Source: an uncultured Pseudomonadota bacterium (GTDB lineage Bacteria > Pseudomonadota > Alphaproteobacteria > RF32 > CAG-239). Taken from it: a stretch of DNA of 64,000 nt. The stretch is taken from the NCBI GenBank assembly GCA_949295005.1, contig CASFJL010000005.1:2589-66588 (forward strand), given 5' to 3'. The position numbers were made by a program, and so were the translations under genes. The notes beneath the pieces were generated by a model. That model worked only from the letters and a program-made list of their open reading frames with translations, was not told the origin of the DNA and made no database searches. Positions 52 through 64,000 of the stretch are shown here, piece by piece; the first letter of the stretch is position 1; the number at the start of each line of letters is the position of its first letter.

Positions 52-175
52 TGCGCAACTCTTTATTTATTAATAAAAACTATTCTTTTACATTTATAAC
101 ATTATTTTATTTGAAATCAATAAAATTTTGGATAAATTATATTCAATTTGGTATGTTTTTAATCATGGAGTTGTC

Positions 176-931: not shown

Positions 932-1024
932 TTTGTTACATTGATGAAATCTTTTGTGTTTTGCTTTTTTAGATAATTTTGCTTAGTATCTGAATCAGTT
1001 AAAACTTATCAAAGGATATATGTG

Positions 1025-2182: not shown

Positions 2183-2208
2183 GTCGTTTTAGATAGTCTG
2201 AATGATAC

Positions 2209-2242
2209 AAAAAAAACTACCTGGTTTCAGGTAGTTTTTTTT
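2209..2242. terminator. bidirectional rho-independent terminator between convergent genes
   Basis: Stem AACTACCTG / CAGGTAGTT (2215..2223 / 2228..2236) with loop GTTT, an A-run on the left and a T-run on the right. It overlaps the stop codon of the minus-strand Sel1 gene. Confidence 0.6.
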
Positions 2243-3395
2243 GCGTTTCTTGCGTTATACCGTCTTCTATATATTTTCTGACATTTGTTCCAAATGTTTG
2301 TTTTATATATGTTGTAATAGAACTTGGTTTTGCCTTAAATGTTTCAGCCTGAGCTTGGGCTTGCAATAACTCTTCCATCTTTATACTTTTGCCTATTAAA
2401 TCTCTTTTTTCTGCCGCTTGAGGAACCCCTTGCGTTGCTGCTAAATTATACCAAATATGCGCTTGAACAATATTTTTGGGGTATCTTTTTCCTGAAGCCA
2501 AAATACCGGCCAACAACATCATGGCTTCTGTATTACCTTGAATGGCGGCCTTACTTAAGACTTTAACACCATTACTGTAATTTTGCGGCGTACCGTGTCC
2601 ATTCATATACATATTTGACAAAACTATCATTGCCTCATCAAAGCCCTTGTTAGCTGCCTCTTTAACTAACTTAAATGCTTGCAGATAGTCTTTTTCAACT
2701 ATAAATCCTTTATAATGCGCATATCCCAACATAAAACTTGCCGTAAAATTATTGGCATCTGATGCTTGTTTGAATAACTGCATTGCTTCTTTAGGACGAT
2801 ATAATTCCCCTTTTCCTGATAAATAGATAAATGCCAAATTGAGCATTGCTTCTGAATTGCCTAGACTTGCTGCTTTTGAAAACATTCTGGTTGCTTCTAA
2901 CAAATTTCTAGGTGTGCCTATTCCACTGTAATAAAGGCTCCCTAAATTGTTTATGGCAACAATATTATCTTGGGCGGCTGCTTTTTGGTAATATTGAAAA
3001 GACTTTTCATGATTTATGGTAATATTGTGTTCTTTATCTCCATATAAATACATATAACCCAGAGCTAAATCTGCATCAACATTCCCCTCATTTGACATTC
3101 GAATAAGCTTTTCCTCATAGGTTTCTTGCAAAGCTGTATTATCTTGAGTTTTCGTGTTATCTTTTAGCTCTTCTGGCTTTTTCTCTTTCCAAAACTGTAA
3201 AAATGAAAAAATACTACCTTCTTCTGCTTTTATTTCTTGAAGATTGGTTGGCTGAGTTTCTTCTTTGGCTTGCACACTTTCTTCTGATTGGATATTTACT
3301 ATATTATCCCCACTCAAGGAAAGAACGGCTTCTTGCGCACAAATATTATTACTCAAACAACAAAAAAATATCAGAAAAAATATTTTTCTTTGCAT
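2217..3395 (-). CDS. secreted Sel1-like (SLR) repeat protein
   Basis: N-terminal signal peptide MQRKIFFLIFFCCLSNNICA. There are at least 6 tandem about 36-aa repeats with the A..G...A...LG.(M/L)Y..G.G signature (e.g. GNVDADLALGYMYLYG, GNSEAMLNLAFIYLSGKG). Confidence 0.8.
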   Translation of the reverse strand: MQRKIFFLIFFCCLSNNICAQEAVLSLSGDNIVNIQSEESVQAKEETQPTNLQEIKAEEGSIFSFLQFWKEKKPEELKDNTKTQDNTALQETYEEKLIRMSNEGNVDADLALGYMYLYGDKEHNITINHEKSFQYYQKAAAQDNIVAINNLGSLYYSGIGTPRNLLEATRMFSKAASLGNSEAMLNLAFIYLSGKGELYRPKEAMQLFKQASDANNFTASFMLGYAHYKGFIVEKDYLQAFKLVKEAANKGFDEAMIVLSNMYMNGHGTPQNYSNGVKVLSKAAIQGNTEAMMLLAGILASGKRYPKNIVQAHIWYNLAATQGVPQAAEKRDLIGKSIKMEELLQAQAQAETFKAKPSSITTYIKQTFGTNVRKYIEDGITQETQKKLPETR

Positions 3396-3397
3396 CT

Positions 3398-5152
3398 TTA
3401 ACCTCTGTCTACAGCTCTTTTTTTTGCACTCATAATGTCTTTCAAAACTTTTCTTTTGCCTGACTTTTGTTTGTTTTGATAATATTGTTTTTTTATTAAA
3501 AATATCTTATGTACTCGAACTTTATTATCCAAAAGATGTTTTTTATCAACATTATTCATCATCTCAAGCTCATCTGCATCTATATTGCTTTCAGCAGAAA
3601 TATCTTCTTTATTTGATTCTATAACTTCATCAGCAAATCTTGCATCTTCATTGCCCATAATATAGCCATTGTATTTTGGTAATATATAAGCCAAATATCT
3701 TTGGGTTAAATCTTCTATTTGGCTCTCATTTACAACCAAGCCTAATGATTTTAATTCTTCATTATCGGTATTAAATCCCATGCTCAAATCAAAAGCCTTA
3801 AATGGTCTGTATATAAAATTGTCTTCTATAAATTTTGCAGAGACTTTATATATTGGCTGTTTTTCTTTGCTTATGGGGTTTATTGATTCTGCGTCATAAT
3901 CAATTGCATTGGCTTGCTTTGCATCTTCTAGCCTGAAAGCCTTGTCCATAACTTGTAAGTTATATGCTCTGATTTTGTCTTTATATTCTTTTTGGATTTC
4001 CATTTGGCGCTTAAAAATATTTAACTTTGCAATTTCTTTATCTCCATTCGTTAAATATTTTTTTTCATTTTCTTCCCAATAGCGCAAGCCCCTATCAGAC
4101 GTATTTTGCTTTGATACAAGCAATAAATCTGCATCTCTGGTTTCTGCATTTTCCACTCCCGCATATATTGTATGCGTTTTATAATCACCTTCATTTAATT
4201 TGGTGATTTTGATTTGAGTCTCTATGGCCACAAGGCAACCATTGATTTCCATATTAATATAAACTCGTTTTTCTCGATAGTTTTTTAATCCATAGGCTTT
4301 ATTGTCATTTTTATTATTATTAAAACTATCTTTGCTTTCTTTAGGGTTGACATGATATTCCGGTTTGTTTGTCAGCAAATCCATTGTCTCTGCTGTATCT
4401 GAATAATATTTTCTGGTAATAGTTAAGCGGAGCATATCTTTCAAGCGTTGGAACGGCTTTGCCAGTTTGCTGATTTCTACCTGTTTTTCTTCTTCTGAAA
4501 TATTTTTCTTGTTTATTTTTTCTATATCTTTGGCATATTGTTGATAATATTTTCCTCCCGGAGATATCATTTTTCCTTGTTTGTCATAAACAGGCAATTT
4601 TATTTTATCTATGGCTCGGTGAATATTTTTCATTCCCGGCATAATAACAAATATCGGATTATCTCTATAATCATAAAAAGTTAAGCGCATTGAAGTAAAC
4701 GGTGTAATATGTTTTGCCTGATATTCTTTATATTTGCTCATATTGTTATGATTATTATATTCTGCAAAACGCTCATTTTCTTCAATAATGCCTGTTTCTG
4801 GGTCTAAGGCATGAATTTCTTCCGGACCAATTTCTTCTCCGACTTCTTGTAATTTTTGAATTTTTCCGGGGCGATAAGTTTTCATCAATGTATAACAAAG
4901 GCTCTTATACATTGCTCTATATGCCTCCATCGGATTACCATATATAGAGCGCATATAATCTGCTGATTCTTTATCTATTATTTCTTTTTTTTCATAATCT
5001 GAAATTGTCTTTAGATTATAATCTTTGATTATATCCATAAGAGAATTTATTTCTCGAGCAGACAAATTTTCAATTTTTTGAGCGTTTAACTCAACTTTTC
5101 CGTTTTTTTTCAGGTTTTTTTTGACTTCTTGTACAATTTGTTGATAATCCAT
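3398..5152 (-). CDS. hypothetical protein, Lys/Asn/Glu-rich, 584 aa (see finding on a weak nucleotidyltransferase-like pattern)
   Basis: Long uninterrupted ORF tightly packed between the Sel1 gene and the flagellin terminator. I recognise no confident family. Spot GC is about 23-30%. Confidence 0.6.
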   Translation of the reverse strand: MDYQQIVQEVKKNLKKNGKVELNAQKIENLSAREINSLMDIIKDYNLKTISDYEKKEIIDKESADYMRSIYGNPMEAYRAMYKSLCYTLMKTYRPGKIQKLQEVGEEIGPEEIHALDPETGIIEENERFAEYNNHNNMSKYKEYQAKHITPFTSMRLTFYDYRDNPIFVIMPGMKNIHRAIDKIKLPVYDKQGKMISPGGKYYQQYAKDIEKINKKNISEEEKQVEISKLAKPFQRLKDMLRLTITRKYYSDTAETMDLLTNKPEYHVNPKESKDSFNNNKNDNKAYGLKNYREKRVYINMEINGCLVAIETQIKITKLNEGDYKTHTIYAGVENAETRDADLLLVSKQNTSDRGLRYWEENEKKYLTNGDKEIAKLNIFKRQMEIQKEYKDKIRAYNLQVMDKAFRLEDAKQANAIDYDAESINPISKEKQPIYKVSAKFIEDNFIYRPFKAFDLSMGFNTDNEELKSLGLVVNESQIEDLTQRYLAYILPKYNGYIMGNEDARFADEVIESNKEDISAESNIDADELEMMNNVDKKHLLDNKVRVHKIFLIKKQYYQNKQKSGKRKVLKDIMSAKKRAVDRG

Positions 5153-5227
5153 TGCGCTTCTCTTATTTTTCTTTCTCTAAAATCTTATTATAAAAAAAAT
5201 ATTCTTTTTTTTCAACCTGAAATATCT

Positions 5228-5263
5228 AAAAAAAAATCCCCTCGCATTGGCAGATGCGAGGGG
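5228..5263 (-). terminator. rho-independent terminator of the flagellin gene
   Basis: Perfect 10-bp GC-rich stem CCCCTCGCAT / ATGCGAGGGG (5238..5247 / 5254..5263) with a 6-nt loop. On the minus strand it is followed by a T-run (complement of the A-run at 5228..5236), 26 nt after the stop codon. Confidence 0.85.
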
Positions 5264-5288
5264 ACAGAATTTGTGTTTAATATGATTA

Positions 5289-6698
5289 TTAGAACAATTG
5301 TAATACTGATTGCGCAGCTTGAGAAGCTAAGCTCAATGAGTTAATAGCCAATTGTTGTCTGGTTTGCAATGCCAACATATTAGCAGATTCTTCGTTCATA
5401 TCAGCTAATACAAGCTTGTCTGAACCTTCTTCTAATACGTTAATCAAGTTTTCAGTAAAGTCTTCGCGGTTTTGAATAATGGAGTAGTTATTACCAAATT
5501 CAGAAGCCATTGTGCGAAGTCTGCTTATTGCATCTTCAACTTGAGTAATTGATGCGTCAATATCAGCATTTCTAAGCCAATCATTGCCAGCAGATTTCAA
5601 ACCTAAACCTTCTGAACTAGCATCAACACCCTTAACTTCCAAGTTTGAAGAACGGTCTTCATTGAAGATAACGGTCAAGTTGTTTTCTTGCAATAAGTTA
5701 ATACCTTTATATCCAGAGTCTTTGGCTAATGAGTCAATTTGAGCTAAAATCTCATTAAATTGTTTTGCATAATCAGCGCGATCTTCGTTAGGAAGATTTG
5801 GATCACCAACTTTTCTTTTTCCGGATAAGCCGGCAGCATCCAAAGCTTTTTGGCTTGCTTCATCACCGCCAAAAACACGAAATTCTTTATCAGGCGCAGT
5901 AATTTCAACGGTCATACCGTCAGCTACTGCGGTTACCCCACCTTGGTCATTTAATGCATCAGCAATACTAGCTGAGTTTTTACCTGTATCTGTATCAAGC
6001 TCAACTACTGCAGCGGCGTTACTACCACCGGCACCCATAATTTGACCAGCTGTAGCTCCACCAGTTTCTGTATTTACCCAAGAAATATCCGAACCATTTA
6101 AAGCTTTAATAGTCAAAGTAGTACCAGCAGCATCTGCTTGAACATCAAAACCAGCTTTTTGCAATTGAGTTGTTACTTCCGTAGCGACCGCTTTTGCACT
6201 AGCTTGTCCGCTAACATCAATTGTAACAGGGGCATCATCTCCTGCATAAATATCAAATTTTGCTGCAGCAGCATTACCCGTTAAATCTAATACGATGGTT
6301 CCCATATCTTCACGAGAATCAACGATTACTTTTTCTGCAATAACAGGTGATGTAATTTCATTACTACCGATTGCAAATTGGTCATAGGTGCTGGCAACGT
6401 CGCGTGCTGAGTTAGCAATAGCCTTTGCTTGTTGAGCAAAAGCAGTAATTGCCTCAATACCTTCGTTTGCGGCTTGAATGGTTTGGATTCCTTGACCCAT
6501 ACTATCTAACAACGCACTTAAGTCATTTGCGCGGTTGGTCAAAGATTGTGAAGTATAATATGAAGAAGGGTTATCAATTGCTGAGTTAACCTTCTTTCCA
6601 GTAGATAAGCGCTCTTGTGTCATATCCATCAAACTTTGTGTATTTTGCAATGACAACAAGTTTGAACGCATACTAGCTGTTAATGATATATCTGCCAT
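5289..6698 (-). CDS. flagellin
   Basis: Conserved N-terminus (LTASMRSNLLSLQNTQ...RLSTGKKVNSAIDNPSSY) and C-terminus (MLALQTRQQLAINSLSLASQAAQSVLQLF) flank a variable Ala/Gly/Thr-rich centre. A GGGAGA RBS lies upstream. Confidence 0.95.
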   Translation of the reverse strand: MADISLTASMRSNLLSLQNTQSLMDMTQERLSTGKKVNSAIDNPSSYYTSQSLTNRANDLSALLDSMGQGIQTIQAANEGIEAITAFAQQAKAIANSARDVASTYDQFAIGSNEITSPVIAEKVIVDSREDMGTIVLDLTGNAAAAKFDIYAGDDAPVTIDVSGQASAKAVATEVTTQLQKAGFDVQADAAGTTLTIKALNGSDISWVNTETGGATAGQIMGAGGSNAAAVVELDTDTGKNSASIADALNDQGGVTAVADGMTVEITAPDKEFRVFGGDEASQKALDAAGLSGKRKVGDPNLPNEDRADYAKQFNEILAQIDSLAKDSGYKGINLLQENNLTVIFNEDRSSNLEVKGVDASSEGLGLKSAGNDWLRNADIDASITQVEDAISRLRTMASEFGNNYSIIQNREDFTENLINVLEEGSDKLVLADMNEESANMLALQTRQQLAINSLSLASQAAQSVLQLF

Positions 6699-6730
6699 TT
6701 TTTTTCTCCCAATACTATGGTTTAAACATT

Positions 6731-6761
6731 ACTTGTGAAATGTTTTACTAACATTACAAGT
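6731..6761 (-). promoter_or_regulatory. stem-loop in the flagellin 5' leader (possible FlbT/translation-control target)
   Basis: ACTTGTGAAATGTT (6731..6744) pairs with AACATTACAAGT (6750..6761), giving a 12-bp stem with a 2-nt bulge, 33-63 nt upstream of the flagellin ATG. Confidence 0.35.
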
Positions 6762-6882
6762 ATCATATTAACACAAACTTAGCATCTTTTCAATGCTTAT
6801 TTTAACCCTTAACTCATTTTTTATTAAAATTTAGTTAAATATAATATATTTTAACCCCAAGTCTTGTATCTGCAAGCATTTT

Positions 6883-7290
6883 TTATGCTTCTTCCACATT
6901 ACCTTTTAATGCTTCTCCAAAAAGCTCATCTTCTTTTTTTATCAGCTTGTCTGCTGCTTTTATTGCGCCATAAAAATCTGAATTGATTACGCATTCATTT
7001 ATAGGCGTAATGTATGAAATTAAGCTTGGTGCCGCATTTTGCAGGTCTCTAACATATTCTATATATAAAGAGCTTAATTTTTCAGGATGATTAGATAAAT
7101 ACATTTGTTGAACAATGAAATATACCCTGCGACTCGGTGTATTGGCATCTTTTTCTCTTAAGATAAATTTTTCTCTTAAAATTGGCATTTTTCCTTCAAT
7201 GTAAAAGCGCGTCCTCTCTCCATCATTGGTAATCAATGCGTCTCCGATAATGATGCTTTCATGTGGTTTTAATTCTATTTTTAAAGGCAT
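6883..7290 (-). CDS. flbT: flagellin synthesis regulator FlbT
   Basis: MPLKIELKPHESIIIGDALITNDGERTRFYIEG... matches the FlbT family N-terminus. ATG at 7290 is preceded by GGAGAG. The ORF-track start at 7302 adds 4 residues. Confidence 0.85.
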   Translation of the reverse strand: MPLKIELKPHESIIIGDALITNDGERTRFYIEGKMPILREKFILREKDANTPSRRVYFIVQQMYLSNHPEKLSSLYIEYVRDLQNAAPSLISYITPINECVINSDFYGAIKAADKLIKKEDELFGEALKGNVEEA

Positions 7291-7416
7291 TTTTCTCTCC
7301 ATTTTACTTTTTTTTAAGAAAACTGCGCCTAGTATATCATTATTTTATTTTTAAAGGCAAATCTTTATTTGCTTATATTAGCAAGATATTAACTCTTTAT
7401 CAGGATTTTTGTTAAC

Positions 7417-7839
7417 ATGCCCGTTTGCTTAAAAGATTTTACACCTCAACAAGCCGAAATTTTTTTGGAGTCGCTTGCTTTTATGCTCCAACAAGATAAA
7501 AATGCCCCTATTGAAAAAACTCAATTTATTAAAATTCAGGCTATCAAACTTCAACACCCGCTCAAAGGTCTTAAATTCAAAACCGATAAGTGCGCTACTG
7601 AAATTGCCGTCTTGCTTAATAAAATTGACAATATTGTAATTAAACGCTATATCCTTTTGCAAATGATTATGCTCACCATCTCTGCTCATGAGCTACAAGA
7701 CAAAGAAGTTGACGTTATTTATGATATTGGTACTAAAGCCGGTATTTCAATTGACAAAATTGATGACTTTTTCTTGTGGGCGGCTAAAGGTGTGGAATGG
7801 CAAATCGAAGGTATGAAAATTGTTGAAGAAGACTTATAA
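7417..7839 (+). CDS. hypothetical protein (140 aa), apparently co-transcribed with uup
   Basis: The ORF ends 3 nt before the uup start. Only a weak TerB-like helical pattern is visible. It does not resemble FlaF. Confidence 0.55.
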   Translation: MPVCLKDFTPQQAEIFLESLAFMLQQDKNAPIEKTQFIKIQAIKLQHPLKGLKFKTDKCATEIAVLLNKIDNIVIKRYILLQMIMLTISAHELQDKEVDVIYDIGTKAGISIDKIDDFFLWAAKGVEWQIEGMKIVEEDL

Positions 7840-7842
7840 ATT

Positions 7843-9657
7843 ATGGTAACCGAACCTCCTATTTATGCTATTAAAGGTGCCGAACTTAGTTTCGGCACTA
7901 ATCATCTGTTTTCTGATGTTAATCTTTATATTAACCGCGGCGATAAAATTTCTCTTGTCGGCAGAAACGGCTCCGGAAAATCAACTCTGCTTAAGGTTAT
8001 TTCCGGTGTGATTGAACCTGACAACGGTGAAATTTTTATTCAGCCAGGGGTAAAGATTGCCTATATGCCTCAAGAACCTGATTTTTCTTCATACAAAACT
8101 CTCAGAGATGTTGTTCTCTCAGGTTTGCCTGATAATGGAAAAGGCTTGGAATATAAAGCTGATATGCTCATTCAACAATTTAGCATTGCTCAAGATGCCA
8201 CGCCTAACCAAGCCTCCGGCGGAGAAAGAAGGAAAGCCGCTTTGGCAAAAACACTCATCAATGAGCCAGACATCTTGCTCCTTGATGAACCGACAAACCA
8301 TCTGGATATTAATACAATTGAGATTTTGGAAAATATTATCAAAAATTTTTCAGGTGCCGTTGTGGTTATTTCTCATGACAGAATGTTCTTAAACAATATT
8401 TCTCAAACCACATTTTGGCTTGATAGAGGTATTTTAAGAAGAAACAATAAAGGTTTTGCTTTTTTTGAAGAATGGCAAAACCAAGTTATTGACCAAGAAA
8501 TTATTGAGCAAAAAAACTTAAATAAAAAACTGGAAGAAGAAACTGAGTGGCTCCACAAAGGCGTTACCGCCAGACGCAGAAGAAATCAGGGAAGATTGCG
8601 CCGCTTGCAACAACTTCGCCAAGAAAGAAAAGAACAAATTAAACAAATCGGCAATATCAACCTTAATGTTGAAGAAGGTGATTATCGCTCAAAATTGGTC
8701 ATTGAAGCTAAAAATATTTCAAAAGCTTTTGGTGATAAGCAAATTGTTAAAGACTTTTCAACCCGAATTATTAAGGGAAACAAAATCGGCATTGCCGGCC
8801 CTAACGGTGCCGGAAAAACAACACTCATCAAACTTTTGACCAAAAGATTGGAACCTGACAGCGGTTTTGTTAGAATCGGCAAAAATTTGGAAGAAGCTTA
8901 TTTTGACCAAAACAGACTTTCCCTTGACCCTAAAAAAACTCTTTGGCAAACTCTTTGCGACAAAGGTGACCATATTTTGGTCAGGGGACAATATCGCCAT
9001 GTGATTGCTTATTTGAAAGATTTTTTATTCCGTCCCGATCAAGCGCATTGTCCTGTTTCTGCCCTATCGGGGGGAGAAAAAAACAGACTTATGCTTGCTA
9101 AAGCTCTTGCTCAACCTTCTAACTTTTTGGTCTTAGATGAACCTACCAACGATTTGGATATGGATACCTTAGACTTATTGCAAGAAGTTTTGTCTGATTA
9201 TGAAGGAACCATGCTGATTGTTAGCCACGATAGAGACTTTTTAGACAGGGTTGTCACTTCGGTTATTTATATGAAAGGTGATGGCAGCGTCTTTGAAAAC
9301 GCAGGAAGTTATAGTGAGATTTTGCAAAAGATTAAAACTCAAACACCTATTAATACTCCTGACAAAAAAGCTCAAACTCAAGCAAAGTCCACTGAGGATA
9401 ATCGCCCCAAGAAGCAAGCCAAACTTAGTTACAATCAGCAAAGATTGTTAGAAATTTTACCGCAAAAAGTTGAAGATTTAGAACAAAAAATTTCTTCTAT
9501 TGAGCAAAAACTCGGTGATGCAAATCTTTATACCAATAATCGCGGAGAATTTGAAAATTTAAGCAAAGAACTAGCCTCATTGAAAATTGAAGTTGAAAAA
9601 GCTGAAAACCAATGGTTGGAATTGCAAGAACTTAAAGAAAATCTTGAAATCAATTAA
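7843..9657 (+). CDS. uup: ABC-F family ATPase Uup
   Basis: Two ABC cassettes (GRNGSGKST / LSGGERRK / LLLDEPTNHLD and GPNGAGKTT / LSGGEKNR / LVLDEPTNDLD), an Arg-rich linker (ARRRRNQGRLRRL) and a C-terminal coiled coil with KLSYNQQRLLE, as in Uup. Confidence 0.85.
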   Translation: MVTEPPIYAIKGAELSFGTNHLFSDVNLYINRGDKISLVGRNGSGKSTLLKVISGVIEPDNGEIFIQPGVKIAYMPQEPDFSSYKTLRDVVLSGLPDNGKGLEYKADMLIQQFSIAQDATPNQASGGERRKAALAKTLINEPDILLLDEPTNHLDINTIEILENIIKNFSGAVVVISHDRMFLNNISQTTFWLDRGILRRNNKGFAFFEEWQNQVIDQEIIEQKNLNKKLEEETEWLHKGVTARRRRNQGRLRRLQQLRQERKEQIKQIGNINLNVEEGDYRSKLVIEAKNISKAFGDKQIVKDFSTRIIKGNKIGIAGPNGAGKTTLIKLLTKRLEPDSGFVRIGKNLEEAYFDQNRLSLDPKKTLWQTLCDKGDHILVRGQYRHVIAYLKDFLFRPDQAHCPVSALSGGEKNRLMLAKALAQPSNFLVLDEPTNDLDMDTLDLLQEVLSDYEGTMLIVSHDRDFLDRVVTSVIYMKGDGSVFENAGSYSEILQKIKTQTPINTPDKKAQTQAKSTEDNRPKKQAKLSYNQQRLLEILPQKVEDLEQKISSIEQKLGDANLYTNNRGEFENLSKELASLKIEVEKAENQWLELQELKENLEIN

Positions 9658-51525: not shown

Positions 51526-52692
51526 ATGCTCATGAAACAAAATCTGGCTCAACATTATAGTCTGAATTTTAAACTTGATATTGACAAACTTCCTTGCAAA
51601 CAAGCTGATAGAATGAATTGGCGAATCTTATTTTCTGGAATATTTTTGGGGAGTTTGTTAATACTGCTTGGTTTTTTTGAACTAACCAATTTTTTCTCAT
51701 CAACAGATATGGTTGTTGAAAATAAACTTATTCAAAGCTCATATAATTCTCTTTTATCTCCGTTAATTTTTGATTGGGTTATTATTGCACTTGGAACAGG
51801 TATCATTTTTTCCTTAATTTTCAAACAGCTCTCTTATAAAAAAATTTTTTTTGACGGTAAATATATCACCGTTATCAAACGCTTGGCTTTTGGAAAAAAA
51901 GAAGTTTTAAGAAACAAACTTTCAGATTATGCCGGTGTGTTATTAAGAATCGAATTTGTTCAATGCGGATTTTGGCCAAAAAACAAATTCATTGTTGAAT
52001 TATACCATAAATCCGCCCAAAAAAGCGTGCCTCTTTATATTTCTACATCTGAAAAAAATATTCGTAAAATTTGGGTGGATTATGCTCAAAAACTCAATCT
52101 TCCGACATTGCTTTTTACTGATGAAGGAATCGTTCGTCGCGATGTGGCTGATTTGCATAAATCATTAAAAGAAATGGCGCAAATTTGGCATCTGAAAGAA
52201 AAACTCAATCCTAATCTTAAACATTCTTATAGAATTGCATTGCGTGAAATTCCGGATAAAAAAGTTATAAAATCCAGAAAAATTTTAATAGATGCTCTTG
52301 ATATCTTTGTTGGCTTTTTGTTTTTTAGTTTCATTGGTTTGCTTGGATTTGTTACATTTTATCAAATGTTTTCTGACCATATTTTTTATGGTTTGCTCTT
52401 TTTTAGCCTGTTATTTATTACCTTTTGTCTCTTTGTCTTCTTGCGCAAAGATAAATTGGTGGTAAAAAAAGAAAAAATTGTTAATACGCATAAATATCTG
52501 TTCTTTTCAACCAAGCATCAAGAAATTGCAAAAAACGATATTAATGGCATATATGTTACTCTCAATCCCGTAACACAACGATATTTTTTAACCATAACTT
52601 CTGAAGAAAAAAATATAATATTTGGAAAAAAACTTCCTATTAATGACCTTAAATGGATTAAAAACTATTTAATCTCTGATCTGATTTTGTGA
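51526..52692 (+). CDS. hypothetical polytopic membrane protein (two TM-pair + soluble-module repeats)
   Basis: The ORF has two similar halves, each with a pair of TM helices followed by about 100 aa. No family assigned. Confidence 0.5.
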   Translation: MLMKQNLAQHYSLNFKLDIDKLPCKQADRMNWRILFSGIFLGSLLILLGFFELTNFFSSTDMVVENKLIQSSYNSLLSPLIFDWVIIALGTGIIFSLIFKQLSYKKIFFDGKYITVIKRLAFGKKEVLRNKLSDYAGVLLRIEFVQCGFWPKNKFIVELYHKSAQKSVPLYISTSEKNIRKIWVDYAQKLNLPTLLFTDEGIVRRDVADLHKSLKEMAQIWHLKEKLNPNLKHSYRIALREIPDKKVIKSRKILIDALDIFVGFLFFSFIGLLGFVTFYQMFSDHIFYGLLFFSLLFITFCLFVFLRKDKLVVKKEKIVNTHKYLFFSTKHQEIAKNDINGIYVTLNPVTQRYFLTITSEEKNIIFGKKLPINDLKWIKNYLISDLIL

Positions 52693-57931: not shown

Positions 57932-58018
57932 GCGCTTGTGGCGGAACAGGTAGACGCTGCAGACTTAAAATCTGTTGGGAGCAATCCCGTGCCGGTTCGA
58001 TTCCGGCCTAGCGCACCA
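57932..58018 (+). tRNA. tRNA-Leu (anticodon UAA), long variable arm, CCA encoded
   Basis: GCGCTTGTGGCGGAACAGGTAGACGCTGCAGACTTAAAATCTGTTGGGAGCAATCCCGTGCCGGTTCGATTCCGGCCTAGCGCACCA is collinear with the class II Leu tRNA architecture. There is one U-U mismatch in the acceptor stem. Confidence 0.9.
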
Positions 58019-58050
58019 TTTATTTTGCTTGTAAATCAAGCACTTAGATT

Positions 58051-58089
58051 AAGAGCCATGGCTGAAAAGTTAGGCTCTTTAATTTTTTT
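58051..58089 (+). terminator. possible terminator after tRNA-Leu
   Basis: AAGAGCC / GGCTCTT stem with a 15-nt loop, followed by TAATTTTTTT. Confidence 0.35.
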
Positions 58090-58152
58090 AAATCCTTCAA
58101 AAACAAGTACTTACATTTTTGCTTTACAATAAACAACTTTTGTGTGAGCAAA

Positions 58153-59655
58153 ATGTCTGCAAACTGTATGGCATCTAAAATCCATTTACAGTTGCGAAAC
58201 AAAATTTTCTATTATAGAGTTGAGTTACCAAGAGTTAATAACAAGAGAAGATACAAAATTATCTCTCTTCATACACAAAACTACTTTGAAGCTCAGGAAA
58301 AAATTAAACAGATGATTACACAAGAAGAAAAGTTAATCCGTTTACGCAGGTTGTTTAATAATTTGATATTTGAAACATCAGATACAACCGGCATTGCAAC
58401 TCTTGTTACCAGTTTTTCTAGAAAAAGATTATCCAAACGCAATAAAGTTGAAGATGTAACTGAGTTATACTCTTTATATTGTAGTATGTCTGACGAGATG
58501 AAAAAACTCAGTGAAGAAAACAAAAATTTAATAAATCAGATTAAAAGTCTAGAAAATGTTATTAAAGAATATATTGGCCCATTAAATGTTGCTATGGCAG
58601 AAATTTGTAAACCTAAGCAATCTGTTTCAGAACCGCAAATGCCAAGTTATACAATTGGACAAGTTTTGGATAATATGTTGTTACAAAAATCTGCATCCAA
58701 TACCCAAACATATCAAACAAGAAAAAGACAAACGATTGTTAATTTACTTACAAATGCCGGACTTTCTTTAGATGATGATTACTCAAATTATCATAATGTT
58801 TCAATGATTGAGAAATTATCTAAAAATATCATCAATGATACATCAATTAAAAATGACAGTAAAAAGACGAGAGTTAATTATCTTAAAGAATTGGCTACCT
58901 GCGGACATAATATTAATCCAGACGTTTATAAAAATAACATTCTCAATCTCTTTCCTCAAATTGATAATACAAAGAAAATTGATAAGAATCCGCACAGACC
59001 ATATGAAAAAGATAAATTGCTTGAAATGTTTAATCCAAAGCATGACTATTTTCAAAAGAATCCGGATGCATTTTGGGCTTGTATGATTTCTTTGTTTACC
59101 GGTGCCAGAATGAATGCAGCTATTACCTTACAATATAAAGATATTCTTGTAAAAGATGGTATTCCTTGTATTCAGTTTTGTTCAGACCATAAAATCAAAC
59201 AACTTAAAAACGAAGCATCCGAGCGTTTTGTTCCTATTCATCAACAATTATTAGATTTAGGTTTTGTTGGTTACATAAATAGGCAAAAGACAAGATTAAA
59301 AGCGAAAGATACGGATTTTATTATTAAGAAATGTCAAACCAAGAGCGGAGAATACAATAATAAATTCTTTACGCGTGAGTTATCTCCGTTTTTTATGGAA
59401 ATTAAAGTTAAAACCGGTAATAACGATGGCTTTGATTTTCACTCTTTTAGAAAAAATCTTAGTATCGCTTTGCAAGATAGCGGTGTTGGTGCGACTTATA
59501 TTAACGATATCATTGGTTGGGAAGGCAAGACAACCATGGAACAATCTTATTCCAACCATACACTTGCACAAATTAAAGCTGAAATGCATAAATTTAGCTA
59601 TGACTTCCTTAAACCATCTTTTGCAAAATGGAAAACCATCATGGCAAAGAAGTAA
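58153..59655 (+). CDS. tyrosine recombinase / phage-type integrase
   Basis: N-terminal arm-type segment (LQLRNKIFYYRVELP). Catalytic residues are in order: TGARMNA (Arg), HSFRKN (His-x-x-Arg), GWEG and EQSY (Tyr). Start uncertain (GTG 58144, ATG 58153 or ATG 58168). Confidence 0.85.
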   Translation: MSANCMASKIHLQLRNKIFYYRVELPRVNNKRRYKIISLHTQNYFEAQEKIKQMITQEEKLIRLRRLFNNLIFETSDTTGIATLVTSFSRKRLSKRNKVEDVTELYSLYCSMSDEMKKLSEENKNLINQIKSLENVIKEYIGPLNVAMAEICKPKQSVSEPQMPSYTIGQVLDNMLLQKSASNTQTYQTRKRQTIVNLLTNAGLSLDDDYSNYHNVSMIEKLSKNIINDTSIKNDSKKTRVNYLKELATCGHNINPDVYKNNILNLFPQIDNTKKIDKNPHRPYEKDKLLEMFNPKHDYFQKNPDAFWACMISLFTGARMNAAITLQYKDILVKDGIPCIQFCSDHKIKQLKNEASERFVPIHQQLLDLGFVGYINRQKTRLKAKDTDFIIKKCQTKSGEYNNKFFTRELSPFFMEIKVKTGNNDGFDFHSFRKNLSIALQDSGVGATYINDIIGWEGKTTMEQSYSNHTLAQIKAEMHKFSYDFLKPSFAKWKTIMAKK

Positions 59656-59789
59656 AGTTACACACAGGTTGAGTTTTTAGCACTCCGATTTGATGAATAA
59701 CACGACAATATAAATGTGAGAGTTCATCAATCATGTAGTATTAAATGAATGAGAGATGAAGATTTATGTCTTTGTCTCTTTATTTTAAT

Positions 59790-59945
59790 ATCGGGTAGCC
59801 ATATCCATACCGGAATATCGCGGTAGGCGTATCCATTATGGGACTGGCTATATGGCGAGATATATACGGTATCCCATACCGGTATATTCTATATTTTAGG
59901 TTAAGCCGTATATAGGTGGGTAAAAAATCACTTACGCGTAGTGAA
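59790..59945. repeat. GC-elevated cluster of direct and inverted repeats in an ORF-free region
   Basis: TATCCATACCGGAATAT (59802..59818) and TATCCCATACCGGTATAT (59870..59887) are direct repeats. GCCATAT (59798..59804) pairs with ATATGGC (59850..59856), and ATATACGG (59862..59869) pairs with CCGTATAT (59906..59913). ATACCGGTAT is a palindrome, and there is a TCACT-TACGCGT-AGTGA hairpin (59928..59944). Confidence 0.6.
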
Positions 59946-59972
59946 TTTTTAGGAGTGTCTGTTTCAGTAATA

Positions 59973-60003
59973 TTTTAACTTCTGCAAATTTTTACAAAAG
60001 TTG
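59973..60003 (+). repeat. 31-bp dispersed repeat, copy A
   Basis: TTTTAACTTCTGCAAATTTTTACAAAAGTTG matches copy B at 26/31 positions without gaps. Confidence 0.7.
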
Positions 60004-60435
60004 ACTAACTGACATTAATGACACTTAGTTGATTTTAACCTTTGACATTCAGATGTTAAAAGTTCGTGACGTTAACGACCATAACTTTTTTTTACAACCT
60101 CATTCCAAACGGGAATTAGGTTAAAATATTAATTTTATGTCATTTTATATATGTAATGTCATGAAAAATAAAAATGTAAAACAAAAAAAATTTTTATCTT
60201 TAAGAAATTTCATCATTAGATTTTGTGAAAAAAACAATTCTATATAGATGTATCATTAACCGTATAACTAAGATCCATCATAATCTGGTTTAACTGTTTT
60301 AGCAGTCGGGATACGAGGAAGCTTTAAACGCGTCCTTTGTCAGAAATATACTTAAAATAAATTATAAATAAATGAATTAAAATAAATAAAAATAATAACT
60401 TAAGTAAAAAAACAAATACTAATTGGATAATAAAA

Positions 60436-61140
60436 ATGAATAAAAACACAATACAAACACTTATAAAAATTATTAAAAGAATGTACTATATCCTCACAAG
60501 TTTATATAATTCACATAGACAAGAAAACACAGGCATAGAGATACCTAAAACAGTTACCGGACTTATAAATGATGAATTTTTGATACAACCTAAACAAAAT
60601 AAAAATACTGAATCCTACGGTCAAAAAATAGATTCTTTTGTAAAATCAATATATTCTGATAAAAAACATTTAACTCCAGATATTATAAGAAAAATACTTA
60701 ATGAATGGATTGCTCAAGAATATAATCCAACTCATTTTTTAACTGTACAACTACCGGATAATCAAAAAACTAAGGATTTATATATTTCCATTAATCATTT
60801 AAGAAATATTATGAAAGCATTTGAAAAGAGTTTAATGAATAATTGGAATAGACATCACTTGCATTTTATAGCTATTGCAGAGAATGGAACGAGTAGTGAT
60901 TGGCATTTTCATATATTATTTAATCAAAGAAACTTTACAGAAGAAGAGTTACAAAATGCTATTCTAAAGGCAAATATAAGAGAACAATTACCTTTTTATA
61001 GTCTTGAGTTAAAACAGATACAAAATAATTTATTGGAAGTTGTTTCATATTGTACTAAAGAAATTAAAATACATTGGAATAAAAAATTTAATTGTAAAAG
61101 TATTATTTTTTCTGAAGACTTATTTAATCTCAATAAATAA
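60436..61140 (+). CDS. HUH-motif replication-initiator-like protein (rolling-circle Rep / inovirus Gp2-YagK-like)
   Basis: Three motifs in Rep order and spacing: HFLTVQLP (motif I-like), DWHFHILF (H-hydrophobic-H) and VSYCTKE (Tyr-x-x-Lys). No database check was possible. Confidence 0.5.
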   Translation: MNKNTIQTLIKIIKRMYYILTSLYNSHRQENTGIEIPKTVTGLINDEFLIQPKQNKNTESYGQKIDSFVKSIYSDKKHLTPDIIRKILNEWIAQEYNPTHFLTVQLPDNQKTKDLYISINHLRNIMKAFEKSLMNNWNRHHLHFIAIAENGTSSDWHFHILFNQRNFTEEELQNAILKANIREQLPFYSLELKQIQNNLLEVVSYCTKEIKIHWNKKFNCKSIIFSEDLFNLNK

Positions 61141-61147
61141 TGAAAAG

Positions 61148-61177
61148 TAACTTCTTGTTATATACAGCAGGAAGTTA
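61148..61177. repeat. inverted repeat of the TAACTTCTTG motif (hairpin 8 nt after the Rep-like stop)
   Basis: TAACTTCTTG (61148..61157) pairs with CAGGAAGTTA (61168..61177), giving 10 bp including one G-U and a 10-nt loop. No T-run follows. Confidence 0.55.
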
Positions 61178-61295
61178 AATTATAAAAAACATCATAATGG
61201 AAATTTAACCGTTTACAAATCCCAAAATACACGACAATACATTTACATAAGATTCTTTTAAATGGTTATAGCACATTGTAAATAGGTATTATTAT

Positions 61296-61326
61296 GTTTA
61301 ACTTCTGCTGAATTTTGCAAAAGTTG
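61296..61326 (+). repeat. 31-bp dispersed repeat, copy B
   Basis: GTTTAACTTCTGCTGAATTTTGCAAAAGTTG. CAGAAGTT at 61353..61360 is the inverted partner of AACTTCTG at 61300..61307. Confidence 0.7.
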
Positions 61327-61410
61327 TATTGTTTTACTTTTGTTGTTGAAAACAGAAGTTGTATTTGTAATAATTCCTATGTAAGCAATAAGTATAATGG
61401 ATATTTAAAC

Positions 61411-62502
61411 ATGGATGAGCCAAATATTTTTGATTTTGCGACCAAAGAACTTTCTCAAGATGCCTTTTTATGTTGGATTTTTTCTTGGGGAAAACAAGAG
61501 TATGAAAATGATTATAGTGAATTACATCAATTTGCAAAACAGATGCTTTTTGATATAACTAAAAGAAGTGATCTAATTCTAGAAGATATCTCTCGCCAAG
61601 AAAAACACATTGATGTTTTACTAAAACTTAAAGATTCTAAAAATCAAAACTACGCAGTAATCATTGAGGATAAAGTTGGAACCCAAGAACATAATGCACA
61701 GATAAATCAATATATTAAAACAATTAAACCTATATATGGAGAAAATATTTATATTGTTTACTTCAAAACAGGATTTACCTCAAACCAAGAAAAAAAGAGG
61801 TTAAAGCAAAGATATCCTCATATTTTCATATATGGTCATGATGATATTTATACTCATCTAACAAATTGTCCTAATCATTATATTTTAAATCAATGGTTTA
61901 AAAAATTTCAAGTTGATTTTAAAAATATCGAAGATTGTAAGAAAAATCTAAATTATAAAGATATATTTTATCAAAAAGATATTTTAAGTATGCAATGTGC
62001 TCTGGATCTTATGACAGATGTCATTATAGAAAAAAGCAATTACAAAAATAGTTATTGGTATATAGTCGACAAAGGAAAAACACCTCATATTTGTCTGTAT
62101 GAAAAATATTCTGAAAATATTGATGGCTATCTTATTCATAATGCTGTTTATTTAATGTTTAGGAAGAAAGAATATAATTTTGTTGTAAAACAGCACATAT
62201 GGTATAAAGAAATTTTAAATGAATCTGAGTATATTGGAAATTCAGGTTCTGGTACTAAATATCGAGTATTAACCAAAAATTATCATCAATTACCAGAAAA
62301 CGTAGTTTACATAAAAGAACAAATAAAAGATAAAATTTGTAGTGCAAATACAGGTTGGAAAATTAAAAGACTTATTGAAAAAGATAATTTGATGATTCTC
62401 CAAAAGAGCTTTCCATATACAAAAAATATTTGTGATATGATTTTACAAGAAACATCAAATATTGAAAAAATAAAATATTGCATTGAAAATTTTCTTGTTT
62501 AG
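61411..62502 (+). CDS. PD-(D/E)XK nuclease superfamily protein with uncharacterised C-terminal half
   Basis: ATG 61411 gives MDEPNIFDFATKELSQDAFLCWIFSW..., then HIDVLLKL...YAVIIEDKVGTQEHNAQINQY (D...E-x-K core plus the Q..Y motif of the PDDEXK_4-like group). The ORF-track TTG start at 61315 lies inside repeat B. Confidence 0.7.
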   Translation: MDEPNIFDFATKELSQDAFLCWIFSWGKQEYENDYSELHQFAKQMLFDITKRSDLILEDISRQEKHIDVLLKLKDSKNQNYAVIIEDKVGTQEHNAQINQYIKTIKPIYGENIYIVYFKTGFTSNQEKKRLKQRYPHIFIYGHDDIYTHLTNCPNHYILNQWFKKFQVDFKNIEDCKKNLNYKDIFYQKDILSMQCALDLMTDVIIEKSNYKNSYWYIVDKGKTPHICLYEKYSENIDGYLIHNAVYLMFRKKEYNFVVKQHIWYKEILNESEYIGNSGSGTKYRVLTKNYHQLPENVVYIKEQIKDKICSANTGWKIKRLIEKDNLMILQKSFPYTKNICDMILQETSNIEKIKYCIENFLV

Positions 62503-62616
62503 ACATATCACATTATTCCATAAACAATCCGTGGATAACCGAATTTAATAAAAGTAAGAAAACCTATACAAAATAAAACAGTTGTATCCATGGGTTAAAA
62601 AATGAGATGATTAAAA

Positions 62617-62646
62617 TAACTTATTGCCATTGAGGTTAAGAAGTTA
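62617..62646. repeat. second, imperfect inverted repeat of the TAACTT(C/A)TT motif
   Basis: TAACTTATT (62617..62625) pairs with AAGAAGTTA (62638..62646) at 8/9 positions, with a 12-nt loop. Confidence 0.45.
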
Positions 62647-62654
62647 AAATATCA

Positions 62655-62691
62655 AAAATAAAAAATCCGACTTGATATTACTCAAATCGGA
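62655..62691 (-). terminator. rho-independent terminator of the DUF3768 operon
   Basis: TCCGACTTGA / TCAAATCGGA stem (one mismatch). On the minus strand it is followed by TTTTTTATTTTT. Confidence 0.65.
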
Positions 62692-62701
62692 CTAAATTGT
62701 T

Positions 62702-63019
62702 TTAATATTCGTGAGATAACATAATCGTCATAACTCGGTTGGTTATATTTGGATTACATGGATTTTCTGAATAAAATCGATAATTTTTATCATAATAATC
62801 AATTTTCCAATAAATTTGTTCTCCTTTATAGTAAAAGCTTCCAAAATCATGCTCGTTGAATGGATCGTTTGCTTTGGTAAAGTTATTAAAACACCTAACT
62901 TGATTTAATATTTCAGCTAATTCACTTTGACTTTTGGCTGATATTCCACAAGATAAGGTAACTCTTCCGCCGTTAAAAGTTCTTCTAAAGTTATCATTTA
63001 ATGTTTTGATATCAGCCAT
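62702..63019 (-). CDS. DUF3768-family protein
   Basis: LNDNFRRTF.GGRV..T.G......L..I...V..F..F...NDP..EHDFG.F......I.WKIDYYD is the pattern I associate with DUF3768 (plasmid/island-borne, function unknown). Confidence 0.65.
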   Translation of the reverse strand: MADIKTLNDNFRRTFNGGRVTLSCGISAKSQSELAEILNQVRCFNNFTKANDPFNEHDFGSFYYKGEQIYWKIDYYDKNYRFYSENPCNPNITNRVMTIMLSHEY

Positions 63020-63288
63020 TAGTTTGCACTTTCAATGAGTTTATTTGATATCACAAACATTTTAAAACGTCTTAAGGCTTGTCTAACTGAAGTATGGCTT
63101 CTTTTACCATAACTTGATTTTTTACCATTAATTTCATATTCAGGTAAAATCAAAGCAATATTTTCAACCAAATGAGACAGAGTATAACCTTCAGTACGAC
63201 ATAATCTTTCAATTCTTCCTTGATAATCAAATGCGGTGGTAGGTTTGTAATTATTGTTTAATAACCAATTTTCAAATTCCTTCAACAT
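63019..63288 (-). CDS. hypothetical protein (89 aa), helical, possibly DNA-binding
   Basis: Its stop overlaps the DUF3768 start (TAATG). The RBS context is AGGAGATTTGCTATG. Confidence 0.55.
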   Translation of the reverse strand: MLKEFENWLLNNNYKPTTAFDYQGRIERLCRTEGYTLSHLVENIALILPEYEINGKKSSYGKRSHTSVRQALRRFKMFVISNKLIESAN

Positions 63289-63299
63289 AGCAAATCTCC

Positions 63300-63428
63300 T
63301 TATAAACGAACAATTTCAGTCATCACAGCGCAGCCTCTTGCTTTTTCAGCTGCACAGGCATCCATTGCTTCGGATAAGGACCAATAAATAGTAGGTAACA
63401 AGATACCATTGACTTTGATTTGATACAT
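63300..63428 (-). CDS. small ORF (42 aa), first gene of the minus-strand operon
   Basis: Not in the ORF track (below the size cut-off). It translates as MYQIKVNGILLPTIYWSLSEAMDACAAEKARGCAVMTEIVRL. The RBS context AGGAGAAATGCTATG is almost identical to that of the next gene. It ends 11 nt before the next ATG. Confidence 0.45.
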   Translation of the reverse strand: MYQIKVNGILLPTIYWSLSEAMDACAAEKARGCAVMTEIVRL

Positions 63429-63588
63429 AGCATTTCTCCTTTCATAAATAGTTGTTTTACTCACTAACTATTTAAATCATGCCGTGTATTTTCTTTATTG
63501 GGAGCCCCTTATTTTCTACTTTTTGGTAACATTTTGCTACGATTTGGACGAGATTACTAATTTACATTGTAATAAAATCATATTTATA

Positions 63589-63720
63589 TTGCAAAAAATG
63601 TATTATATTTGCAAATTTGTGTTGCAAAAAATGTATTACAGCAATAGTTTTATATTGAAAAAAATGTAAAAACATGTGATATTTGTATTGTAAAAAATGT
63701 AGAATGGAGAAATTTCATGA
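63589..63720 (+). repeat. four direct repeats with exact 33-bp phasing (iteron/operator-like array)
   Basis: 17-nt cores at 63589, 63622, 63655 and 63688 read TTGCAAAAAATGTATTA (twice, identical), TTGAAAAAAATGTAAAA and TTGTAAAAAATGTAGAA. The last unit runs into the GGAGA RBS and ATG of the ATPase gene. Confidence 0.8.
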
Positions 63721-64000
63721 GAAGAACTGTCTTTAACAAACTGCTTGATTGGAAAAATAAAAAAAATCGCAAACCTCTGATTTTGCAAGGAGCAAGACAG
63801 GTTGGCAAGACTTGGCTCATGAAAGAATTTGGAAAAAAAGAATATATAAAAACCGCATATATTAACTTTGATAAAAATGAAAACATGCAAAATCTATTTT
63901 CTACAGATATGGATGTTAAACGTCTTTTAATGGGATTATCTTTAGAATCTGATACGCAAATAACTCCAGATGATACATTAATTATTTTTGATGAAATTCA
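63717..64000 (+). CDS. AAA+ ATPase (COG1373/DUF4143-type), N-terminal part, truncated by window edge
   Basis: Not in the ORF track (no stop in window). MRRTVFNKLLDWKNKKNRKPLILQGARQVGKTWL (Walker A) ... TLIIFDEI (Walker B). GGAGA lies 6 nt upstream. Confidence 0.8.
   Translation, partial: MRRTVFNKLLDWKNKKNRKPLILQGARQVGKTWLMKEFGKKEYIKTAYINFDKNENMQNLFSTDMDVKRLLMGLSLESDTQITPDDTLIIFDEI

Follow-up and report, generated by a model that had tools for sequence, protein, structure and literature searches.

The 64,000-nt stretch analyzed here (the window), part of contig CASFJL010000005.1 from an uncultured Pseudomonadota bacterium, ends in an AT-rich island that begins at a tRNA-Leu(UAA) gene. We consider it likely that positions 58001–64000 are the left six-sevenths of a ~7.2-kb site-specific integrative element with exchangeable anti-phage-type cargo. 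Its constant part, termed the chassis, comprises a tyrosine recombinase (integrase, int), a rolling-circle replication protein of the HUH type (Rep) and a leftward operon encoding a 42-aa protein, an 89-aa protein and a DUF3768 protein; a PD-(D/E)XK nuclease and an ATPase are its cargo. A preliminary description of this DNA had proposed that an element has integrated at the 3' end of tRNA-Leu and that the island is its left part, and this proposal is well supported: the site is variable over 80 related species, the same chassis lies at the same tRNA elsewhere, the right attachment site (attR) is present in three relatives, and the modules are far more alike between hosts than the hosts' own genes. 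Comparison of these relatives demonstrated the anatomy of the element, its attachment site, its family, the swapping of its cargo and its exchange between species.

Attachment site, family and ends of the element

Relatives were collected by scanning one genome per species with the neighboring Psd protein, which yielded 80 loci (these and further loci of relatives are labeled L plus a number). All of them are metagenome-assembled genomes (MAGs) of uncultured gut Alphaproteobacteria, including 'Proteobacteria bacterium CAG:495', 'Azospirillum sp. 51_20' and Ca. Scatocola, together with bins from human, ruminant, chicken and mouse gut. The order shown by the window, psd and then tRNA-Leu(UAA), recurs in ~74 of the 80 species. 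In almost all 80, homology to the window at the nucleotide level breaks off at 58018–58023, where the tRNA has its last base, and the sequence beyond the tRNA varies from species to species. In several of them, such as L009, L071 and L074, the tRNA directly adjoins conserved backbone genes. The tRNA site is thus a variation hotspot whose boundary coincides exactly with the 3' end of the tRNA.

The large recombinase that had been noticed behind the tRNA was confirmed, its reading frame beginning 125 nt further on. The catalytic residues R (TGAR), K, HSFR, W and Y (EQSYS) are intact and conserved in the five family members aligned (the window and four homologs), and the gene lies next to the att site, as expected of a tRNA-integrated element. 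Homologs of the chassis were found by clustering the open reading frames (ORFs) downstream of the tRNA, followed by look-ups of Rep and DUF3768 homologs. Clustering revealed the same integrase, Rep and 89-aa/DUF3768 operon, in the same order and at the same tRNA, in L012, L020, L053 and L078, and the look-ups added L094, L097, L098, L100 and the IMG/VR locus L093. L097 also carries the chassis at this tRNA, and in all at least seven other genomes or contigs have it at tRNA-Leu. The integrase, rep and the DUF3768 operon are likewise present in L093, L094 (93–96% identical to the window in rep and operon), L098 and L039, and N-terminal integrase stubs of 79–102 aa were found in L036, L041, L047, and L075.

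A direct repeat of the tRNA 3' segment, which the preliminary description had expected, is missing from the window, where no second copy of the 18-nt att core TTCCGGCCTAGCGCACCA was detected with up to 3 mismatches allowed, but it was found as attR in three relatives (L039, L041, and L094), in which the core stands behind a conserved right arm and is followed by a terminator. Specifically, the right arm of L094 and L039 ends in ...GCAAAGCCAAGCTGTTCAAGGGATTTGAAAGATATTGGTAAGT, followed by TTCCGGCCTAGCGCACCA and the terminator hairpin. L041, whose integrase is decayed, has a complete island of 3.9 kb between two copies of a 20-nt direct repeat that contains the core. Given the lone core in the window, attR is predicted to lie beyond it. 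In L039 the final gene encodes an ATPase of 435 aa, and the core has its outer end 184 nt past the ATPase stop codon; the end of the window element is therefore predicted near 65.2 kb. By homology, the element probably measures ~7.2 kb in total, with a predicted attR of TTCCGGCCTAGCGCACCA, preceded by ...CAAGGGATTTGAAAGATATTGGTAAGT, ~1.2 kb past the window end. The left arm, which gives the tRNA a replacement terminator hairpin, is kept in L012, L097, L041, L078, L053 and L093.

Identities to the window differed strongly between backbone and the modules of the element. For L097 they were 82% in psd and pssA, 93% in rep, 94% in the int-rep spacer and 99.5% in the nuclease; for L012, 82% in the backbone and 94–98% in the element; and for L039, 78–80% in the backbone, 74% in rep and 99.2% in the N-terminus of the ATPase. 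L004, which belongs to the same species, was 100% identical in the backbone, 94% in the left arm and 96% in the 3' half of the integrase. Cassettes with 99% identity in hosts that share ~80% in housekeeping genes imply recent exchange, and the comparisons indicate that both the whole element and single cassettes were recently passed between species. The integrase of L004 (ERZ16268098 scaffold_9984, locus 1–1406) appears split into two ORFs (323 and 146 aa), owing either to a frameshift that makes it a pseudogene or to an error in the assembly.

The GC content of the island (58019–64000) is 27.8%, compared to 35.5% in the backbone (1–57931; z = -6.6). This value lies under those of all 208 six-kb backbone segments (minimum 31.8%), and single 60-nt lines of the island go down to 6.7–15%. 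The description of the island as extremely AT-rich holds as a comparison with the backbone, but the composition is extreme only relative to an already AT-rich genome. Variable presence over the 80 species and deviant composition are both features of a tRNA-integrated element. Within the backbone, the lowest-GC stretch (~28%) contains a 386-aa ORF at 51532–52692, which has no Pfam hit on record and is conserved in same-species contigs.

Metagenome contigs of the same species break at 57889, 57958, 58012, and 58028. Of five such contigs, four stop either at tRNA-Leu or no more than 10 nt from it, and another contig of 2.2 kb corresponds exactly to 61272–63442 with 100% identity. This pattern can be read as the output of an assembler when several variants share conserved junctions, and suggests that several element variants coexist in same-species samples.

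Some relatives showed further arrangements at this tRNA. In L093 (IMGVR_UViG_7000000633_000399, locus 1–9200), the element is preceded by a prophage-like region that encodes an integrase of its own (371 aa). Between the two stands a 59-nt copy of the 3' part of tRNA-Leu, which starts at the anticodon loop and extends to CCA; the same tRNA hence serves two different integrases. In L026, the tRNA terminator is fused to the 115-nt control block (50–165 nt after tRNA-Leu), followed by YgjP/HsdR genes. This locus was considered as an empty site and rejected as a deletion derivative, which has lost int, the 42-aa gene and all that lies between them and has kept the 115-nt block and its slot 3 cargo. 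In ~20 of the 80 species, the tRNA-Leu 3' end (12–34 nt, often plus the terminator) is repeated 140–245 nt downstream (L076, L065, L086, L056, L080, L033, L017, L060; L062, L059, L009, L069; L049–L051, L061), with three copies in L086. The inserts between these repeats belong to at least three sequence types, match no Rfam family and contain a palindrome, AACCGGCAC-N-GTGCCGGTT, which mirrors the tRNA T-arm. They look like att scars, mini-elements resembling cis-mobilizable elements (CIMEs), or tandem duplications from other integrases.

Chassis genes, non-coding sites and exchangeable cargo

The features of the island are summarized in Table 1. The ORF identities given in the preliminary description were recovered with Pfam and PADLOC, except that the ATPase starts at 63717 and not 63718, and the ORF-free gaps that it had reported measured 780, 270 (using the ATG at 61411), 199, and 288 nt. 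The tRNA was the sole RNA family found by Rfam, and none of the seven island proteins matched NCBIfam. Searches of DUF3768, the 89-aa protein, Rep and the nuclease against PDB sequences returned nothing below E 0.6.

Table 1. Features of the proposed integrated element in the window
Feature	Position	Strand	Basis or remark
tRNA-Leu(UAA), integration target, stays intact with element	57932..58018	+	ARAGORN; Rfam RF00005, 55 bits
att core in attL, TTCCGGCCTAGCGCACCA, final 18 nt of tRNA	58001..58018	+	identical 18-mer is attR in L039, L041, L094
Left arm	58019..58143	+	GCTTG..CAAGC palindrome; terminator hairpin AGAGCC..GGCTCT, then T-run
Tyrosine recombinase (integrase), 503 aa, intact	58144..59655	+	PF00589 E 6.9e-11; PHROG 1 integrase E 7e-19
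Non-coding int-rep region, 780 nt, slot 1 at left edge	59656..60435		slot empty in window
HUH rolling-circle Rep, 234 aa	60436..61140	+	PF23343 REP_ORF2-G2P E 7.8e-9
Palindrome D7-B	61297..61326		second copy of 59974–60003 site; left edge of slot 2
PD-(D/E)XK nuclease, slot 2, 363 aa (ATG 61411); 395 aa from TTG 61315	61411..62502	+	PF14281 E 1.5e-7
DUF3768 protein, 105 aa, operon gene 3	62702..63019	-	PF12599 E 4.9e-30
89-aa SAM-like protein, operon gene 2	63019..63288	-	weak PF13102 match
42-aa protein, operon gene 1 (54 aa if 63300–63464)	63300..63428	-	conserved as cluster 82; called 42 aa in L094, L098
Conserved non-coding block, ~115 nt (..GACATTTTGCTACGATTTGGACGAGATTACTAATTTACA)	63453..63566		alignment of 10 members
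Three 33-nt tandem repeats, core TTGCAAAAAATGTATTA	63583..63701	+	part of ATPase cassette; also in L039
AAA_14/DUF4143 ATPase, N-terminal 94 aa, cut by window end	63717..64000	+	slot 3; PDC-S01 E 1.3e-40

In Rep, the HUH motifs I (PTHFLTVQLP), II (WHFHILFN), and III (YCTKEI) of rolling-circle initiators are invariant in six members. The Rep family comprises 168 clusters in a database of 5.8 billion proteins, and every named one comes from a MAG labeled Alphaproteobacteria. No match was found by tblastn in 50,697 phage records or in the plasmid collection. IMG/VR contained a single locus, the prophage-plus-element tandem of L093, which was consequently rejected as a free virus.

The spacer between int and rep holds a hairpin (59751–59780), a GC-richer repeat block (~59790–59925) and the palindrome D7-A (59974–60003), and a block upstream of rep (~60289–60403) is conserved in distant members. 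The whole 780-nt region is a candidate site of the rep promoter and origin. The 30-nt D7 palindrome (TTTAACTTCTGC-N8-GCAAAAGTTG) flanks rep, with 87% identity between the copies at 59974 and 61297. In the distant member L093, both copies flanking rep share a compensating change (AACCTCTGC..CAAAGGTT). Such a site would fit either an origin or terminus hairpin for Rep or the operator of a dimeric regulator. The D7 palindromes around rep and the block at 60289–60403 are both candidates for the double-strand origin, and the sequence favors neither assignment. The block at 63453–63566 is the most conserved non-coding block found in the family and probably represents the promoter/operator region of the DUF3768 operon. 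A promoter-consensus scan gave 42 matches compared to 39.8 expected, which is chance level in AT-rich DNA, and no promoter is claimed from it. The 33-nt tandem repeats with the core TTGCAAAAAATGTATTA, right before the ATPase start, travel with the cassette, as seen in L039, and may be an operator array.

DUF3768 was found in all members of the element family. Outside the family, 501 alphaproteobacterial and cyanobacterial plasmids carry it, most of them from Rhodobacterales, Sphingomonadales, Rhizobiales, and Acaryochloris (261 typed as conjugative and 94 as mobilizable), as do ten lytic Rhizobium phages. The genes that adjoin DUF3768 in a Rhizobium phage and on a Paracoccus plasmid bear no relationship to the 89-aa protein. 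The AlphaFold2 model of DUF3768 (predicted local distance difference test (pLDDT) 91, predicted template modeling score (pTM) 0.81) had no significant analog by Foldseek in the PDB (best E 0.37) or BFVD (best E 0.13). A RelE-like resemblance was rejected (template modeling (TM) score ~0.4, E ~1), and no mention of DUF3768 or PF12599 was found in the searchable literature. The 89-aa protein is a standalone version of the SAM-like N-terminal DNA-binding domain of tyrosine recombinases. Among 206 representatives of this domain, fusions to HNH, DUF4145, SRA, and DUF4268 were found, and P0391 scores as Phage_int_SAM_1 with E 2.7e-9. We infer that the 42-aa and 89-aa proteins may regulate the element or direct recombination, and that DUF3768 may serve establishment or counter-defense, with which its presence on plasmids and in lytic phages is consistent. 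Three small human-fecal contigs named 'Bacteriophage sp.' carry DUF3768 and were considered as excised forms of the element; they were rejected, as DUF3768 alone is shared.

Three slots vary in content: the int stop codon (slot 1), the position right of the palindrome at 61297–61326 (slot 2), and the position right of the block at 63453–63566 (slot 3). In the window, slot 1 is empty, slot 2 holds the PD-(D/E)XK nuclease and slot 3 an ATPase of the PDC-S01 family. Slot 1 carries a ClpP-like SDH protease and a 103-aa protein in L012, three genes in L097, and C5 methylases and others in L053, L078, and L020; the extra genes of L097 and L012 (1.2–1.6 kb) are inserted precisely at the int stop codon. 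In slot 2, the PD-(D/E)XK nuclease is shared by L097, while SoFic (E 1e-114) was found in L078 and L020, an Mrr-like nuclease in L100, and nothing in L094, where D7-B abuts the position equal to window 62505. Slot 3 contains the PDC-S01 ATPase in L039, a type II restriction endonuclease (E 7e-199) with a Dam methylase in L020, an Eco57I-like methylase in L094, type I restriction-modification (R-M) systems with YgjP in L078, L026, and L098, and HU with a sigma-like protein in L053. GmrSD-like proteins are also among the slot cargo of members, and L041 carries a PDC-S01 ATPase and a DUF262/HEC-05-like protein between its integrase stub and attR. Judged by homology, the cargo is mostly restriction and anti-phage-type genes. 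The slot 3 locus of L098 (ERZ16268122 scaffold_27, locus 1–9426), a type I R-M locus of ~9.5 kb with RhuM, a Ser/Thr kinase, Vpar_1526 and YgjP, shows that a cargo slot can outsize the chassis itself.

Both cargo proteins of the window resemble candidate defense families. The ATPase matches PDC-S01 over the 94 aa present, and the full-length gene of L039 does so with E 6e-170 (PADLOC). PDC-S01 is described as a very common single-gene defense candidate, an ATPase fused to PD-(D/E)XK, which was found by genomic context (PMC12988326). For the nuclease, residues 83–152 align to positions 90–156 of the 400 in the PDC-S26 profile (E 1.6e-8), so that the match is limited to the nuclease core (~70 residues), and its C-terminal domain differs. 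D68 and E86-D87-K88 of the nuclease are invariant or nearly so, the C-terminal domain is beta-rich, and the 363-aa ATG start is the one used by gene callers on identical contigs. The top PDB match of its AlphaFold2 model (pLDDT 91, pTM 0.87) was the modification-dependent restriction enzyme MspJI (E 2.8e-4), followed by EndoMS/NucS and CRISPR-ancillary nucleases.

These assignments support two claims of the preliminary description only in part. It had assigned the cargo to no nameable system; the nuclease and the ATPase match PDC-S26 (partially) and PDC-S01 (strongly), and the equivalent slots elsewhere hold known defense systems. It had also proposed an undescribed system. Of its supposed parts, int, Rep and the 42-aa/89-aa/DUF3768 operon belong to the chassis and not to the cargo.

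Relation to known elements and alternative explanations

The element shares with integrative mobilizable elements (IMEs) and 'hitcher' islands a tyrosine recombinase beside attL, an 18-bp att core that is identical to the 3' end of the tRNA, accessory cargo in a small element, decay to integrase stubs and tandem accretion at one tRNA. Unlike IMEs, it has no recognizable relaxase or oriT and instead contains a PF23343 HUH Rep and the 42-aa/SAM-like/DUF3768 operon. Actinomycete integrative and conjugative elements (AICEs) of the pSAM2 type combine a tRNA-targeting tyrosine integrase with a rolling-circle initiator. The pairing of int with a rolling-circle Rep that would act on the excised circle is common to both, but pSAM2-type AICEs have an FtsK-like Tra for self-transfer and reside in Actinobacteria, whereas the element has no transfer gene, a Rep of another family, an alphaproteobacterial host and defense cargo. 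P4-like satellites and phage-inducible chromosomal islands (PICIs) possess hotspots where unrelated defense systems replace one another between close relatives (PMC13586616, PMC8628076). They resemble the element in this respect and in the small core of int and replication genes; the element differs by having no primase-helicase, no capsid-size or packaging hijack genes and no identified helper, and with ~7 kb it is smaller than P4 (~11 kb) or PICIs (~10–15 kb). Pipolins are integrative, often at tRNA genes, and combine a tyrosine recombinase and their own replication protein with an exchangeable defense reservoir (PMC11551731). The element is similar in all these traits, but the pipolin replication gene, a primer-independent PolB, has no sequence relationship to the HUH Rep. 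Tycheposons of Prochlorococcus, a streamlined low-GC genome, show tRNA-targeting tyrosine recombinases, modular cargo and tandem piling (bioRxiv 10.1101/2020.12.28.424599). Here, tRNA targeting, modularity and tandem accumulation at the same site are shared, and host, recombinase lineage and replication module differ, as does the mainly restriction and defense cargo of the element. No relaxase family was matched by the window proteins in Pfam, NCBIfam, or PHROGs scans, satellite genes (psu/sid/delta, terS/ppi/cpm and similar) were found neither in the window nor in complete relatives, virion structural and lysis genes were lacking (PHROG hits were confined to the integrase and, weakly, Rep), and none of the hallmarks of an integron (IntI-type integrase, attI, attC-bounded cassettes) was seen, the slot boundaries sharing no motif. 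The element is therefore filed only under the broad kind of tRNA-integrated tyrosine-recombinase elements.

Several explanations differ from the preferred one in how, or whether, the element moves. As an IME, it would rely on its HUH protein chiefly for relaxase activity: the protein would nick an oriT formed by one of the D7 palindromes and pilot the excised circle through the conjugation pore of another element. HUH Rep-type proteins act as relaxases in some integrative and conjugative elements (ICEs) and IMEs (the MOBT/Rep_trans family); the two D7 palindromes on either side of rep are conserved and show covariation in a distant member, and plasmids with DUF3768 are mostly conjugative or mobilizable (355 of 501), with the gene sometimes beside type IV coupling protein (T4CP) or MobA genes. 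However, in addition to the missing relaxase match, no coupling protein is encoded according to Pfam and NCBIfam, the covariation of the palindromes is equally expected for the operator of a dimeric regulator, and no conjugative helper was identified in the host genomes, in which no search was aimed at one. We hold this explanation to be unlikely. The same Rep could also produce rolling-circle copies, possibly single-stranded, that are packaged by a helper, be it a tailed prophage at tRNA-Leu or a filamentous or micro-virus with a similar Rep, which would make the element a phage satellite or 'hitcher'. PF23343 is named for replication proteins of single-stranded DNA phages (ORF2/G2P), the L093 element stands in tandem behind a prophage using the same tRNA on a contig that IMG/VR scored as viral, DUF3768 is also found in lytic Rhizobium phages, and small size, an int and rep core and defense hotspots are typical of P4-like satellites and PICIs (PMC13586616, PMC8628076). 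This is offset by the lack of any capsid-remodeling, terminase, packaging-signal or helper-sensing gene by Pfam, PHROGs or NCBIfam, by a Rep that is without a match in the phage records, and by 'Bacteriophage sp.' contigs that share DUF3768 only; the lone tandem case may be a coincidence at a hot tRNA site. A satellite appears rather improbable.

That the island is a fixed, decaying remnant whose genes are now accessory genes of the chromosome would account for the common integrase stubs and deletion derivatives elsewhere (L036, L041, L047, L075, and L026), the split integrase of L004 and the failure to detect a circle in the JGI and IMG/VR scans. In the window, though, all chassis genes are intact with catalytic residues kept, and the 99% cassette identity across hosts ~20% divergent in housekeeping genes implies recent exchange; immobility is accordingly given little credence. 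An integron-like platform, on which the recombinase captures cassettes at structured repeats (D2 and D7 hairpins), was rejected as extremely improbable. Hairpin repeats do occur at the edges of the PD-(D/E)XK cassette, which is precisely absent in L094, but the slot breakpoints have no common motif and lie mostly at gene ends, cargo genes point in both orientations and bring their own upstream regions, the 503-aa integrase is of the phage type and targets a tRNA, and the pattern fits homologous recombination in conserved flanks.

Several results weigh against an exchangeable, mobile element as preferred here. The attR of the window's own element falls outside the window, its right end and 7.2-kb size being drawn from homology, and contig extension by exact-protein look-ups of window genes returned short contigs or nothing; a pattern scan of JGI metagenomes for the 3' window sequence of the ATPase had no hits, either. 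An empty site from the same species was not recovered, since the same-species contigs simply break at the tRNA. Exact scans for the attP junction of an excised circle in JGI metagenomes and for the right-arm/core junction in IMG/VR viral contigs both gave 0 hits, in collections that may not hold relevant samples. No relaxase, oriT, excisionase or packaging gene was recognized, the origin or nick site of Rep was not identified, and structure and literature searches did not explain the function of the conserved operon. Finally, PDC-S01 and PDC-S26 are candidate defense families without experimental validation, something that most families of this sort still await (PMC12988326), and the window nuclease matches PDC-S26 over part of the profile only.

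Proposed model and significance

In the model that we propose, the host is an uncultured low-GC gut alphaproteobacterium akin to 'Proteobacteria bacterium CAG:495', 'Azospirillum sp. 51_20', and Ca. Scatocola. The tyrosine recombinase would join the 18-bp core TTCCGGCCTAGCGCACCA to the identical 3' end of tRNA-Leu(UAA). Integration would rebuild the tRNA, with a new terminator from the left arm, and the displaced 18 nt and the old terminator would come to lie at attR; the attP junction of the excised circle is predicted to read right arm-core-left arm, TTTATTTTGCTTG. The chassis runs from attL through int, the non-coding region, the palindrome-flanked HUH Rep, the leftward operon, the 115-nt control block and the right arm to attR. 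Rep may amplify the excised circle by rolling-circle replication, while the 89-aa and 42-aa proteins could regulate or direct recombination. The cargo would shield the host, and hence the element, from phages and foreign DNA, and transfer would depend on a helper, presumably a conjugative element or a phage.

The family falls within the tRNA-integrated tyrosine-recombinase elements with defense cargo and appears to be undescribed and confined to a gut alphaproteobacterial lineage. It introduces no new mechanism or biological principle: the cargo is recognizable as candidate defense genes, and the architecture is familiar. A more far-reaching proposal, which we put forward tentatively and regard as doubtful, is that the 42-aa/89-aa/DUF3768 operon is a new functional module of mobile DNA, for instance for anti-defense, establishment or excision control, and that, with the clade-restricted phage-type HUH Rep and its palindromes, it defines a new class of helper-dependent rolling-circle 'hitcher' that spreads defense cassettes among gut Alphaproteobacteria.

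To our knowledge, mobile elements of this uncultured low-GC gut alphaproteobacterial lineage, which is common in human and animal guts, have not been described. The element is a natural catalog of candidate defense genes (PDC-S01, PD-(D/E)XK variants, SoFic, and R-M systems), and its integrase together with the 18-bp att site in tRNA-Leu is a possible genetic tool. Furthermore, it provides a clean context for studying DUF3768, which is widespread on plasmids and in phages.

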